Shown here one piece after another: positions 1,997-46,739 of a stretch of 64,000 nucleotides of DNA. The DNA is taken from the NCBI RefSeq assembly GCF_044324875.1, contig NZ_CP172185.1; one strand, given 5' to 3'. The notes below the pieces were generated by a model. The model was not told the DNA's origin. It saw only the letters and a list, made by a program, of their open reading frames with translations, and did not search any database. Source of the stretch: Escherichia coli (GTDB lineage Bacteria > Pseudomonadota > Gammaproteobacteria > Enterobacterales > Enterobacteriaceae). How positions within the stretch are numbered: the stretch's first letter is position 1; each line of letters opens with the position of its first letter. The translations under genes and the position numbers were made by a program.

Positions 1997-3652
1997 ATGA
2001 CTCATCTTCCCCACTGGTGGCAAAACGGCGTTATCTACCAGATTTATCCAAAGAGTTTTCAGGACACCACGGGTAGCGGCACCGGCGATTTACGTGGCGT
2101 TATCCAACGCCTGGACTATCTGCATAAACTGGGCGTTGATGCCATCTGGCTAACCCCCTTTTATGTCTCTCCCCAGGTCGATAACGGTTACGACGTAGCG
2201 AATTATACGGCGATTGATCCCACCTATGGCACGCTGGACGATTTTGACGAACTGGTGACGCAGGCAAAATCTCGCGGGATTCGTATCATTCTCGATATGG
2301 TGTTTAACCATACCTCTACCCAACATGCCTGGTTTCGCGAGGCGCTGAACAAAGAAAGCCCTTACCGCCAGTTTTATATCTGGCGCGATGGCGAACCAGA
2401 AACGCCACCGAACAACTGGCGTTCAAAATTTGGCGGTAGTGCGTGGCGCTGGCATGCGGAAAGCGAACAGTACTATTTGCATCTCTTTGCACCAGAACAG
2501 GCGGATCTCAACTGGGAGAATCCAGCGGTACGCGCAGAGCTGAAAAAAGTCTGTGAGTTCTGGGCCGATCGTGGGGTCGACGGGTTGCGGCTGGATGTGG
2601 TGAATCTGATCTCCAAAGATCCGCGTTACCCTGAAGACCTGGATGGCGACGGGCGTCGCTTCTACACCGACGGGCCACGAGCACACGAGTTTTTGCACGA
2701 GATGAACCGCGATGTGTTTACGCCACGCGGGTTAATGACCGTAGGTGAAATGTCCTCCACCAGCCTTGAGCATTGCCAGCGATACGCGGCTCTGACAGGC
2801 AGTGAATTGTCGATGACCTTTAATTTTCATCACCTGAAGGTCGATTATCCCGGTGGTGAGAAATGGACGCTGGCTAAACCTGACTTTGTGGCGTTGAAAA
2901 CATTGTTCCGCCACTGGCAACAAGGAATGCACAACGTGGCATGGAATGCCTTGTTCTGGTGTAACCACGATCAGCCGCGCATTGTTTCTCGCTTTGGTGA
3001 TGAAGGTGAATACCGCGTGCCTGCGGCAAAAATGCTGGCGATGGTGCTGCATGGCATGCAGGGAACGCCGTATATCTACCAGGGCGAAGAGATTGGCATG
3101 ACCAACCCGCATTTCACGCGCATTACTGACTATCGCGACGTGGAGAGCCTCAATATGTTTGCCGAGCTGCGCAACGATGGTCGTGATGCCGACGAGTTAT
3201 TGGCAATCCTCGCCAGTAAATCCCGTGACAACAGTCGCACCCCCATGCAATGGAGCAACGGCGATAATGCCGGGTTTACGGCTGGCGAACCGTGGATTAG
3301 CCTGGGCGATAACTATCAGGAAATCAACGTAGAAGCTGCGCTGACCGATGAGTCCTCGGTGTTTTACACCTACCAAAAGTTAATCGCACTGCGTAAGCAA
3401 GAAGCCGTCCTGACATGGGGCGATTACCAGGATCTGCTGCCAAACAGCCCTGTATTGTGGTGCTATCGCCGTGAATGGAAGGGGCAAACCTTGTTGGTCA
3501 TTGCCAACCTTAGCCGTGAGACCCAACCCTGGCAGCCAGGGAAAATGCTCGGCAACTGGCAGCTTGTGATGCATAACTACGAAGAAGCCTCACCACAACC
3601 CTGTGCCATGACTTTACGGCCTTTTGAGGCTGTCTGGTGGTTACAGAAGTAA
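1997..3652 (+). CDS. treC: Trehalose-6-phosphate hydrolase
   Basis: 551-aa product starting MTHLPHWWQNGVIYQIYPKSF (GH13 alpha-amylase family); ATG at 1997 inside longer ORF-track call 1850..3652. Confidence 0.96.
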   Translation: MTHLPHWWQNGVIYQIYPKSFQDTTGSGTGDLRGVIQRLDYLHKLGVDAIWLTPFYVSPQVDNGYDVANYTAIDPTYGTLDDFDELVTQAKSRGIRIILDMVFNHTSTQHAWFREALNKESPYRQFYIWRDGEPETPPNNWRSKFGGSAWRWHAESEQYYLHLFAPEQADLNWENPAVRAELKKVCEFWADRGVDGLRLDVVNLISKDPRYPEDLDGDGRRFYTDGPRAHEFLHEMNRDVFTPRGLMTVGEMSSTSLEHCQRYAALTGSELSMTFNFHHLKVDYPGGEKWTLAKPDFVALKTLFRHWQQGMHNVAWNALFWCNHDQPRIVSRFGDEGEYRVPAAKMLAMVLHGMQGTPYIYQGEEIGMTNPHFTRITDYRDVESLNMFAELRNDGRDADELLAILASKSRDNSRTPMQWSNGDNAGFTAGEPWISLGDNYQEINVEAALTDESSVFYTYQKLIALRKQEAVLTWGDYQDLLPNSPVLWCYRREWKGQTLLVIANLSRETQPWQPGKMLGNWQLVMHNYEEASPQPCAMTLRPFEAVWWLQK

Positions 3653-3663
3653 ATCTTCGCTAA

Positions 3664-3694
3664 GCCCCGGTAATGCCTGTCATTCCGGGGTTTT
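3664..3694 (+). terminator. Rho-independent terminator after treC
   Basis: GC hairpin (CCCCGG...CCGGGG) followed by TTTT immediately 3' of treC stop. Confidence 0.6.
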
Positions 3695-3716
3695 GCCTGT
3701 CAGTATGTTGTTTTTG

Positions 3717-3900
3717 TTGATTTTATAATCAAAAAATTCATTAAAAAATTTACATATCGCTGTAGCGCCCGTCATCCGTACGCTCTGCTTTTTACTTTGA
3801 GCTACATCAAAAAAAGTTCAAACATCCTTGATGCAAAGCACTATATATAGACTTTAAAATGCGTCCCAACCCAATATGTTGTATTAATCGACTATAATTG
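3717..3900 (+). promoter_or_regulatory. nrdDG promoter region: FNR-like half-site palindrome TTGATTTTATAATCAA (3717-3732), two NrdR-box-like AT-rich palindromes (CACTATATATAG at 3839-3850; CAATATGTTGTA near 3872-3883), -10 TATAAT at 3894-3899
   Basis: Motifs read from sequence; nrdDG is known to be FNR-activated and NrdR-repressed; exact site assignment is inference. Confidence 0.4.
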
Positions 3901-4045
3901 CTACTACAGCTCCCCACGAAAAAGGTGCGGCGTTGTGGATAAGCGGATGGCGATTGCGGAAAGCACCGGAAAACGAAACAAAAAAACCGGAAAACGTCTT
4001 TCCCAATTTCTGTGGATAACCTGTTCTTAAAAATATGGAGCGATC

Positions 4046-6184
4046 ATGACACCGCATGTGATGAAACGAGACGGCTGCAAAGTGCCGTTTAAATCAGAGC
4101 GCATCAAAGAAGCGATTCTGCGTGCAGCTAAAGCAGCGGAAGTCGATGATGCCGATTATTGCGCCACTGTTGCTGCGGTTGTCAGCGAGCAGATGCAGGG
4201 CCGCAACCAGGTGGATATCAATGAGATCCAGACCGCAGTTGAAAACCAGCTGATGTCGGGTCCATACAAACAACTGGCTCGTGCTTACATCGAGTACCGT
4301 CACGATCGCGACATTGAACGTGAAAAACGCGGTCGCCTGAACCAGGAGATCCGTGGTCTGGTCGAGCAGACCAACTCCTCGTTACTCAACGAAAACGCCA
4401 ACAAAGACAGCAAGGTGATTCCAACCCAGCGCGACCTGCTGGCCGGGATCGTGGCTAAACACTATGCACGCCAGCACCTGCTGCCGCGTGACGTGGTGCA
4501 GGCACATGAGCGTGGCGATATTCACTATCACGATCTCGATTACTCGCCGTTCTTCCCGATGTTCAACTGCATGTTGATCGACCTGAAAGGCATGCTGACC
4601 CAGGGCTTCAAGATGGGGAATGCCGAGATTGAACCGCCGAAGTCGATCTCTACGGCAACCGCTGTAACTGCGCAGATTATTGCTCAGGTCGCCAGCCATA
4701 TTTATGGCGGCACCACCATTAACCGTATCGATGAAGTGCTGGCACCGTTTGTCACCGCCAGCTACAACAAACATCGCAAGACCGCAGAAGAGTGGAACAT
4801 CCCGGACGCCGAAGGCTACGCTAACTCTCGAACCATCAAAGAGTGCTACGATGCCTTCCAGTCGCTGGAGTACGAAGTAAACACCCTGCACACCGCCAAC
4901 GGTCAAACACCGTTTGTGACCTTTGGTTTTGGTCTGGGCACCAGCTGGGAGTCGCGCCTGATTCAGGAATCTATCCTGCGTAATCGTATCGCAGGCCTCG
5001 GTAAAAACCGTAAAACTGCGGTGTTCCCGAAACTGGTGTTTGCGATTCGCGATGGCCTGAACCATAAAAAAGGCGATCCGAACTACGACATCAAACAGCT
5101 GGCGCTGGAGTGCGCAAGCAAGCGCATGTATCCGGATATCCTGAACTACGATCAGGTAGTGAAAGTCACCGGTTCGTTTAAAACCCCGATGGGCTGCCGC
5201 AGCTTCCTCGGCGTGTGGGAAAATGAAAACGGCGAGCAGATCCACGATGGTCGTAACAACCTCGGCGTGATCAGCCTGAACCTGCCGCGTATTGCTCTGG
5301 AAGCAAAAGGCGATGAAGCCACTTTCTGGAAGCTGCTGGATGAACGTCTGGTGCTGGCACGTAAGGCGCTGATGACCCGTATCGCCCGTCTGGAAGGCGT
5401 GAAGGCACGCGTAGCTCCTATCCTCTATATGGAAGGTGCTTGTGGCGTGCGTCTGAATGCTGACGATGATGTTTCTGAAATCTTCAAAAATGGTCGTGCG
5501 TCTATTTCGCTGGGCTACATCGGCATCCACGAAACCATTAACGCGTTGTTCGGCGGCGAGCATGTTTACGACAACGAGCAGCTTCGCGCGAAAGGTATCG
5601 CGATTGTTGAACGTCTGCGTCAGGCGGTGGATCAGTGGAAAGAAGAAACGGGTTACGGTTTCAGTCTCTACAGCACGCCGAGTGAAAACCTGTGCGACCG
5701 CTTCTGCCGTCTCGATACCGCTGAGTTTGGCGTGGTGCCGGGCGTGACCGATAAAGGTTACTACACCAACAGTTTCCACCTCGATGTGGAGAAGAAGGTG
5801 AATCCGTACGACAAGATCGACTTTGAAGCACCTTACCCGCCACTGGCGAACGGTGGCTTCATTTGCTACGGCGAGTATCCAAACATTCAGCACAACCTGA
5901 AGGCGCTGGAAGATGTCTGGGATTACAGCTATCAGCATGTACCGTATTACGGCACCAATACGCCGATCGATGAGTGCTACGAGTGTGGCTTTACCGGCGA
6001 GTTCGAGTGCACCAGCAAAGGCTTCACTTGTCCGAAATGTGGTAACCATGACGCCTCTCGTGTGTCGGTGACTCGCCGCGTGTGCGGATATTTAGGTAGC
6101 CCGGATGCACGTCCGTTTAACGCTGGTAAGCAGGAAGAAGTTAAGCGCCGCGTTAAACATTTGGGAAATGGGCAGATAGGGTAA
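4046..6184 (+). CDS. nrdD: Anaerobic ribonucleoside-triphosphate reductase (class III RNR)
   Basis: 712-aa ORF, MTPHVMKRDGCKVPFKSERIKEAIL N-terminal ATP-cone; C-terminal glycyl-radical region and Zn-ribbon cysteines (CYECGFTGEFECTSKGFTCPKCG). Confidence 0.97.
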   Translation: MTPHVMKRDGCKVPFKSERIKEAILRAAKAAEVDDADYCATVAAVVSEQMQGRNQVDINEIQTAVENQLMSGPYKQLARAYIEYRHDRDIEREKRGRLNQEIRGLVEQTNSSLLNENANKDSKVIPTQRDLLAGIVAKHYARQHLLPRDVVQAHERGDIHYHDLDYSPFFPMFNCMLIDLKGMLTQGFKMGNAEIEPPKSISTATAVTAQIIAQVASHIYGGTTINRIDEVLAPFVTASYNKHRKTAEEWNIPDAEGYANSRTIKECYDAFQSLEYEVNTLHTANGQTPFVTFGFGLGTSWESRLIQESILRNRIAGLGKNRKTAVFPKLVFAIRDGLNHKKGDPNYDIKQLALECASKRMYPDILNYDQVVKVTGSFKTPMGCRSFLGVWENENGEQIHDGRNNLGVISLNLPRIALEAKGDEATFWKLLDERLVLARKALMTRIARLEGVKARVAPILYMEGACGVRLNADDDVSEIFKNGRASISLGYIGIHETINALFGGEHVYDNEQLRAKGIAIVERLRQAVDQWKEETGYGFSLYSTPSENLCDRFCRLDTAEFGVVPGVTDKGYYTNSFHLDVEKKVNPYDKIDFEAPYPPLANGGFICYGEYPNIQHNLKALEDVWDYSYQHVPYYGTNTPIDECYECGFTGEFECTSKGFTCPKCGNHDASRVSVTRRVCGYLGSPDARPFNAGKQEEVKRRVKHLGNGQIG

Positions 6185-6341: not shown

Positions 6342-6806
6342 ATGAATTATCATCAGTACTATCCTGTCGACATCGTCAACGGCCCCGGCACTCGCTGTAC
6401 CCTGTTTGTCTCCGGGTGTGTTCATGAATGCCCCGGTTGCTATAACAAAAGCACCTGGCGGGTAAATTCCGGTCAGCCATTTACCAAAGCAATGGAAGAC
6501 CAGATCATTAACGATCTAAATGACACTCGCATCAAACGCCAGGGTATTTCCCTCTCCGGCGGCGATCCGCTGCATCCGCAAAACGTGCCGGATATTCTGA
6601 AACTGGTACAACGCATCCGCGCCGAATGTCCGGGTAAAGACATCTGGGTGTGGACAGGCTATAAACTCGACGAACTCAACGCTGCGCAAATGCAGGTTGT
6701 TGATTTGATTAACGTACTGGTCGACGGCAAATTTGTGCAGGATTTAAAAGACCCTTCCCTGATCTGGCGCGGCAGCAGCAATCAGGTGGTGCATCATTTG
6801 CGATGA
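6342..6806 (+). CDS. nrdG: Anaerobic RNR activating enzyme (radical SAM)
   Basis: 154-aa ORF with CxxxCxxC-like cluster (CVHECPGCYN) directly downstream of nrdD. Confidence 0.95.
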   Translation: MNYHQYYPVDIVNGPGTRCTLFVSGCVHECPGCYNKSTWRVNSGQPFTKAMEDQIINDLNDTRIKRQGISLSGGDPLHPQNVPDILKLVQRIRAECPGKDIWVWTGYKLDELNAAQMQVVDLINVLVDGKFVQDLKDPSLIWRGSSNQVVHHLR

Positions 6807-46155: not shown

Positions 46156-46463
46156 TTATTCAGCCTCCTGTCTGGGTCAGCCGAATCCCGGGGAGGCAAG
46201 GAACGTGTTAAAGGTCGGCTGAAAAATGACGCGTTATAGTACTGACATACCCCGCTAAACTCAAGGCCAGCCGACAAATAAATCTCATCTTTCACCAAAT
46301 CGTACTAACACGCTGATTTGAAGTTCATCACACTTCATCATGGTGTTTTTTTGAACAACTGCATCAGAAATGGTCACCATCAACTTCTTTATCATTGATT
46401 AAAATTAAATCAGAAGATCATCACAGAGGAGAGCACACAAAGTCAGCCGTTGAGGAGGTATCT

Positions 46464-46739
46464 ATGTTCAGTCGTGTTTTAGCCCTTCTGGCTGTGCTTT
46501 TGCTAAGTGCAAATACATGGGCAGCCATTGAAATTAATAACCACCAGGCCAGAAATATGGACGATGTGCAAAGCTTAGGCGTGATTTATATCAACCATAA
46601 CTTCGCCACTGAAAGTGAAGCACGTCAGGCATTAAATGAAGAGACAGATGCGCAGGGCGCAACGTACTACCATCCGATCCTGATACGGGAACCGGGAAGT
46701 AACGGCAATATGCACGCCAGCGCGGATATTTATCGCTAG
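46464..46739 (+). CDS. yjfY: DUF1471 (YdgH/BhsA/McbA-like) small periplasmic protein YjfY
   Basis: 91-aa product MFSRVLALLAVLLLSANTWA... from ATG 46464 with GAGGAGG RBS; ORF track extends upstream. Confidence 0.9.
   Translation: MFSRVLALLAVLLLSANTWAAIEINNHQARNMDDVQSLGVIYINHNFATESEARQALNEETDAQGATYYHPILIREPGSNGNMHASADIYR

Follow-up and report, generated by a model that had tools for sequence, protein, structure and literature searches.

The DNA upstream of nrdD in the window (the whole 64,000-nucleotide stretch of Escherichia coli DNA that was analysed) raises the question of which of its palindromes are operator sites. A sequence-only reading had placed an FNR/CRP-like palindrome with odd spacing at 3717-3732 and two NrdR boxes over the core promoter further downstream. 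We are highly confident that the interval 3717-3900 is the known FNR-activated, NrdR-repressed sigma-70 promoter of nrdDG, and that the 3717-3732 palindrome lies outside this machinery, as an AT-rich inverted repeat of one E. coli haplotype.

The annotation and the list of open reading frames identify the locus as E. coli treBC-nrdDG. A 501-base query around the finding matched the treC-nrdD junction in 5425 of 5426 complete E. coli genomes, strain 7/2 being 100% identical over the query. The attribution to nrdDG made from the sequence alone was thus right. So was the accompanying claim of anaerobic and dNTP-responsive control, as regulation of the operon by FNR plus NrdR is established. The gene layout, taken from the list of open reading frames and the annotation except for the terminator, which comes from RNA folding, is as follows.

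3650-3652: treC stop codon.
3664-3694, plus strand: treC intrinsic terminator, hairpin GCCCCGG...CCGGGG (3664-3690) followed by UUUU (3691-3694).
4046-6184, plus strand: nrdD coding sequence, 712 amino acids.
6342-6806, after nrdD: nrdG coding sequence.

The treC terminator begins 12 nt past the stop codon and folds at -20.4 kcal/mol (z = -3.95). It displays what is expected of an intrinsic terminator, namely a stable GC-rich hairpin followed by a U-tract at a gene end. The terminator pattern scanner missed it because the stem has a bulge. The promoter scan likewise overlooked the FNR-dependent nrdD promoter because of its poor -35, and the promoter and terminator scan of the plus strand detected nothing relevant. 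The short open reading frames in 3655-4045 have 25-57 codons each, and supporting features were seen for none of them.

We then asked where FNR binds. The positions below are given relative to the nrdD start site, and the elements are not assigned to a strand.

3717-3732, centre -143.5: palindrome TTGATTTTATAATCAA (TTGAT-TTTATA-ATCAA), haplotype-specific, not an FNR site.
3797-3810, centre -64.5: FNR site 2, TTGAGCTACATCAA, identified by the top FNR matrix score, a ChIP-seq peak, its published position and conservation.
3828-3841, centre -33.5: FNR site 1, TTGATGCAAAGCAC, identified by a score of 10.76 bits, its published position and conservation.

The FNR matrix was trained, without the nrdD site, on 62 ChIP-bound sites from Table S6 of Myers et al. 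2013, and these training sites score 12-21 bits. With 17.85 bits, site 2 is the highest-scoring FNR 14-mer in the whole 64 kb, and site 1 ranks 10th among about 64,000 positions. In the ChIP-seq study itself, the FNR summit at 4460925/4460936 falls on a predicted site TTGATGTAGCTCAA, listed at 4460919 (Myers et al. 2013, PMC3688515), and this sequence is the reverse complement of window positions 3797-3810. Citing Roca et al. 2008, a 2023 paper gives -33.5 as the centre of nrdDG site 1 and -64.5 as that of site 2, with site 2 reported to be essential to anaerobic activation; the published work describes only these two nrdDG FNR sites (PMC10425943). The 54-mer published there as an FNR target is identical to window positions 3792-3845 but for one base, a strain difference. 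As quoted in the same paper, the tandem FNR promoter of E. coli nrdDG (Boston & Atlung 2003; Roca et al. 2008) has the same two sites with the same 31-bp spacing and the same -64.5/-33.5 positions. Compared with K-12, our strain carries single-base changes, such as GTTCAAAC for K-12 GCTCAAAC between the FNR sites, with no difference of substance; it does differ in its upstream haplotype, which creates the palindrome. The 31-bp distance between the two FNR sites is found in nearly all of 69 Enterobacteriaceae loci. Site 1, the weaker site, lies over the -35 region and in most genera has the better form TTGATGCAAATCAC (15.5 bits).

The FNR label therefore belongs to 3797-3810 and 3828-3841, the documented sites, 80-110 bases further downstream, and not to 3717-3732. 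Both had escaped the sequence-only reading, whose FNR assignment has to be abandoned. We regard this corrected map of the nrdDG control region as the useful result of the analysis; the control of nrdDG by FNR, NrdR and DnaA is already documented, and nothing in our analysis is new in that respect.

The FNR centres at -64.5 and -33.5, taken from this secondary source, also fix the rest of the core promoter, as they would place the nrdD start site at A3868 and hence the -10 hexamer at 3855-3860. In K-12 numbering (U00096.2) this start would fall near 4,460,861, provided that the coordinate given for the FNR site in Table S6 of PMC3688515 marks the left end of its 14-mer. The two NrdR boxes are arranged around these elements.

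3838-3853 (-30 to -15), no strand assigned: NrdR box 1, GCACTATATATAGACT, identified by the oligonucleotide of PMC12176259, matrix rank 1 and conservation.
3855-3860, plus strand: -10 hexamer of the nrdD promoter, TAAAAT (TAAAAT in 43 of 69 loci, TAGAAT in 24 of 69).
3869-3884 (+2 to +17), no strand assigned: NrdR box 2, ACCCAATATGTTGTAT, identified by the oligonucleotide of PMC12176259, matrix rank 2 and conservation.

The AT-rich palindromes at 3839-3850 and 3872-3883, proposed from the sequence alone to be NrdR boxes about three turns apart over the core promoter, are the cores of these 16-bp boxes. To score them we used a matrix trained only on the four boxes of nrdAB and nrdHIEF, and thus independent of nrdDG. 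Among the 63,985 positions of the window, those starting at 3838 and 3869 came out as ranks 1 and 2. At the 31-bp spacing the joint score of the pair is 27.7, whereas 20 shuffles reached 20.8 at most, so that the pair is clearly beyond chance. The two boxes are 31 bp apart from centre to centre, or about three helical turns, with a linker of 15 bp, and they bracket the -10 hexamer and the start site at 3868; box 1 overlaps FNR site 1 by 4 bp. The 69 Enterobacteriaceae loci give median scores of 13.7 and 13.4 bits for the two boxes and keep the 31-bp spacing in 65 cases; boxes, spacing and -10 together are conserved in 65-69 of the 69. The identification was confirmed by the 57-bp nrdDG oligonucleotide of PMC12176259, which is identical to window positions 3833-3889 and whose layout (5-nt flanks, 16-bp boxes) sets our box coordinates. 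Rozman Grinberg and colleagues measured a KD of 160 +/- 37 nM for the binding of this 57-mer to NrdR-ATP-dATP (PMC12176259). The nrdDG pair resembles the NrdR box pairs of ribonucleotide reductase operons treated in that paper in having two 16-bp palindromic boxes, a 15-bp linker and an overlap with the core promoter, and we see no difference from them. It matches the arrangement throughout. Box pairs of this kind in ribonucleotide reductase operons are also said to have been treated by Rodionov & Gelfand in 2005 and by Torrents et al. in 2007.

A simple working of the promoter can be proposed from this map. Published work shows that, under anoxia, dimers of [4Fe-4S]-FNR occupy both sites, the strong one at -64.5 and the weaker one at -33.5 (PMC10425943). 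Three helical turns separate the sites, which are on the same face of the DNA. FNR bound there would recruit RNA polymerase to a promoter whose -10 is good and whose -35 is poor. NrdR with ATP and dATP, whose binding to the boxes has been demonstrated, would occupy -30 to -15 and +2 to +17. With the -10 and the start site enclosed between the boxes, and 4 bp of FNR site 1 lying within box 1, bound NrdR should keep polymerase away and be a competitor of FNR at this site.

Two further sequences near the start site deserve mention. A perfect -10 hexamer, TATAAT, is present at 3893-3898, 25 nt downstream of the start site and just past NrdR box 2; other genera conserve it as TAYWAT (CTACAAT, CTATTAT). 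Transcription from this hexamer would put the FNR sites at about -70.5 and -101.5. At 3900-3915, 31-32 bp beyond nrdDG box 2, GCTACTACAGCTCCCC contains the half-box TACTACAG that NrdR box 2 of nrdAB also has; this likeness is probably due to chance, since the full box scores only about 2 bits.

What, then, is the palindrome at 3717-3732? The sequence and the non-canonical spacing reported by the sequence-only reading are correct, at exactly these coordinates. Could it be a third FNR site, or a site of another member of the CRP family, which contributes to anaerobic control in spite of its odd spacing? Both arms are perfect half-sites, TTGAT and ATCAA, identical to those of the canonical site TTGAT-N4-ATCAA, and they stand upstream of an FNR-activated promoter. 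In addition, the exact pattern TTGAT-N6-ATCAA is rare in shuffles, with 0.08 expected per 64 kb against 2 observed. However, six bases and not four separate the arms, whereas every 14-mer of the FNR ChIP-seq set has N4, and the 14-mers overlapping 3717-3732 all score at most 2 bits with the FNR matrix. The position is equally unfavorable. FNR usually activates from about -41.5 or -61.5, and -143.5 is outside this range; the centre of site 2, also the region of the ChIP-seq summit, comes 79 bp further downstream. The strain used for the FNR ChIP-seq is devoid of this palindrome.

The comparison of strains and genera speaks in the same direction. K-12 MG1655 and O157 have TTGATTTTTCAACCAG in place of TTGATTTTATAATCAA and so miss the right half-site; E. 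albertii has TTGATTTTCCAATCAG at this position and one divergent E. coli has TTGATTTTATAACCAG. The exact palindrome occurs in none of 80 related loci, among which the looser TTGA-N8-TCAA was found at the equivalent place in three Kosakonia loci only. K-12, in which FNR control was worked out, has no such right arm, so that this control cannot depend on the palindrome. That it acts as a third FNR site is thus extremely improbable. Statistically, the palindrome is only weakly beyond chance: the spacing was picked post hoc in a very AT-rich local sequence, and TTGA-N8-TCAA is expected 1.4 times per 64 kb. As for its distribution, the 111-bp segment of K-12 is matched at 95% identity or above by 4302 of 5420 genomes and that of our window by 1274 of 5347; judging from such identity bands and a few inspected sequences, the palindrome is probably lacking in some 80% of complete E. 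coli genomes. The treC-nrdD spacer (3680-3790) has two main haplotypes in E. coli, which differ at about 6-8 of 111 positions, with the differences clustered at 3724-3733. Strain FCI1 has a 9-bp deletion within the T-run of the spacer.

The palindrome is most likely a strain-specific inverted repeat; it lies about 25 bp beyond the treC terminator, in an AT-rich block of partial conservation. In our view it is a polymorphism among strains, and its annotation as a regulator site is to be avoided. The block that surrounds it, and a promoter predicted in it, are the following.

3708-3755, no strand assigned: partly conserved AT-rich block, TGTTTTTGTTGA-W8-(T)CA(A/G)A ... AATTTACA, from alignments and column statistics.
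3722-3749, plus strand: predicted "constitutive" sigma-70 promoter (Shimada et al. 2014, PMC3946193), a prediction only.

Judged by its conservation in the alignments, this block is not random. TGTTTTTGTTGA (3709-3720), C3730 and AATTTACA (3747-3754) are conserved in many genera, some of which do not have treC as the upstream neighbour. The conservation is lopsided, being strong in the left arm and the T-run and low in information in the right arm save for C3730; G3716 is shared by 44 of 47 sequences, C3730 by all 48. The dyad positions pair in 76% of cells against 70% in shuffles, a value reached by 0 of 500 shuffles, and slid controls give 23-53%; 14 pair types are seen against 9.8 in shuffles (1 of 500). 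This weak covariation, together with the promoter predicted here, leaves room for a minor function. K-12 has an alternative small inverted repeat on the same left arm, GTTGA-TTTT-TCAAC, and the distance between the arms varies with the E. coli haplotype (N8 vs N4), a behavior into which a rigid dimeric regulator fits poorly. The T-run of the block lies about 15 nt past the treC terminator. In Kosakonia, Enterobacter, Cedecea and Raoultella the T-run follows immediately on a GC-rich hairpin and looks like the tail of the upstream terminator.

Several explanations of this block can be envisaged besides an inverted repeat of minor importance. One of them is a site for another protein that modulates nrdDG from upstream, the dyad block (about 3709-3733) being bound by Fis or another nucleoid-associated protein, by a regulator with an ARG-box-like site or by some other factor. 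The block is indeed conserved across genera despite differing upstream flanks, its dyad covariation is above controls, and its best-conserved G and C, G3716 and C3730, stand at a distance of 14 bp with an AT-rich core between them. They would correspond to the two positions of greatest importance in the Fis motif (G at -7 and C at +7 of a 15-bp core with an AT-rich centre). Similarly, the common form GTTGAATAATTAATCAGA presumably fits most positions of the ARG-box consensus, as judged by eye. Both likenesses were nevertheless judged by eye, and a second ARG box at the usual 21-bp offset is absent. The uneven conservation of the two arms and the change of their distance between haplotypes also argue against such a site, as does the fact that no enrichment of Fis, H-NS or IHF is listed at the nrdD FNR site (PMC3688515). 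We therefore hold this explanation to be unlikely. The motifs of IHF, Fur, CRP, LexA, PurR, TyrR, NarL, ArcA, PhoP, NsrR and H-NS were also compared with the block by eye, and none was convincing. Alternatively, the palindrome could overlap the -35 of a weak constitutive sigma-70 promoter, with AAAAAT at 3744-3749 as its -10 and a start near 3754-3758, at about 4,460,973 of K-12 (U00096.2), which would provide basal, FNR-independent transcription of nrdDG. RpoD holoenzyme reportedly bound the nrdD-treC spacer in vitro in gSELEX experiments, and the promoter predicted from them, TTTTCA-16-AAAAAT (Shimada et al. 2014, PMC3946193), maps exactly onto the K-12 equivalent of 3722-3749; the window has TTTATA-16-AAAAAT instead. 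In 34 of 45 loci the second base of the hexamer that precedes the conserved TTTACA is A, and this hexamer agrees with TATAAT at a mean of 3.76 of 6 positions. Yet the window sequence agrees with the consensus at no more than 8 of 12 positions and fell short of the promoter-scan threshold, its -35 is unconserved (mean 2.4 of 6), and gSELEX cannot resolve 3722-3749 from the main promoter 110 bp away. This promoter is, in our opinion, rather improbable.

A role in RNA, or as a DNA hairpin, has also to be considered: the inverted repeat could form a small hairpin at the end of the treC transcript and act as a secondary terminator or stabiliser. In several genera changes in the two arms preserve the dyad (TCGA...TCGA, ATGC...GCAT, TGG...CCA), a T-run precedes it, the Salmonella, Citrobacter and Enterobacter forms have another T-run after it, and a loop could tolerate a variable length such as that seen in K-12. 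Against this, the stems have 4-6 AU-rich pairs with -2.5 to -6.8 kcal/mol (z -0.6 to -2.0), the palindrome of the window itself folding at -5 kcal/mol (z = -1.2), and RNAalifold predicted no consensus structure for the aligned block. Moreover, the repeat is downstream of a strong terminator, so that little transcript should arrive there. A functional hairpin is accordingly quite improbable. Rfam, searched with the window in E-value mode and with 10 related loci, returned no family match; a hit to STnc410, with 16 bits for a gathering score of 50 and nothing in other species, was dismissed as noise. More broadly, the dyad block at 3709-3733 together with AATTTACA might constitute an undescribed upstream module of nrdDG in Enterobacteriaceae, bound by some factor or nucleoid protein, or else working as a weak constitutive promoter; the palindrome would be one allelic form of this module. 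We mention this as a tentative idea and would not bet on it. Our preferred reading remains a strain-specific inverted repeat in a partly conserved block.

Two patches between the block and the FNR sites are worth recording. TTTACA occurs in 45 sequences, those of 44 loci and of the window, and in 43 of them it lies 47-48 bp upstream of where FNR site 2 starts. Between the two centres this makes about five helical turns. Further towards site 2 comes another conserved patch, GCCCGYCATCTGTAC, whose form in the window (3765-3781) is GCGCCCGTCATCCGTAC. We found no known factor or promoter that accounts for either TTTACA or the GCCCGYCATCTGTAC patch.

Downstream of the promoter, and thus outside the 3717-3900 interval, the transcribed leader carries DnaA boxes.

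3868-4045, plus strand: nrdD leader, 178 nt, with two DnaA boxes and GGAG at 4037-4040.
3934-3942 and 4011-4019: perfect DnaA boxes TGTGGATAA, 77 bp apart, the second with a weak partner at 4022-4030.

These boxes have already been described. DnaA ChIP-seq gave a 62-fold enrichment at the nrdD double box tTTAAGAACAggTTATCCACAg (PMC11317965, 2024), and the window sequence CTGTGGATAACCTGTTCTTAAA, at 4010-4031, is the reverse complement of this double box upstream of nrdD. The other perfect box is the one at 3934-3942. DnaA binds within the transcribed leader of nrdD, as ChIP-seq performed elsewhere shows.

Nearly every Enterobacteriaceae locus has kept the DnaA boxes, at about -112 and -35 relative to the ATG, and Yersinia, Hafnia and Edwardsiella have two boxes as well, one of them inverted. 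They are missing from the loci of Escherichia sp. ESNIH1, Pseudescherichia and UBA7338 (L058, L060 and L063), where the FNR pair is at -144/-113 from the ATG, compared with the usual position of about -249/-218. From the nearer FNR pair and the missing boxes we infer that about 105 bp of leader, including both boxes, were lost in this lineage.

Finally, the FNR matrix pointed to two other high-scoring FNR-like 14-mers in the window, at 46395-46408 and 46581-46594. One of them, TTGATTAAAATTAA, with 15.3 bits, is about 57 bp upstream of a small open reading frame for a secreted protein (MFSRVLALLAVLLLSANTWA...), and the other, GTGATTTATATCAA, with 17.3 bits, is inside this same open reading frame.
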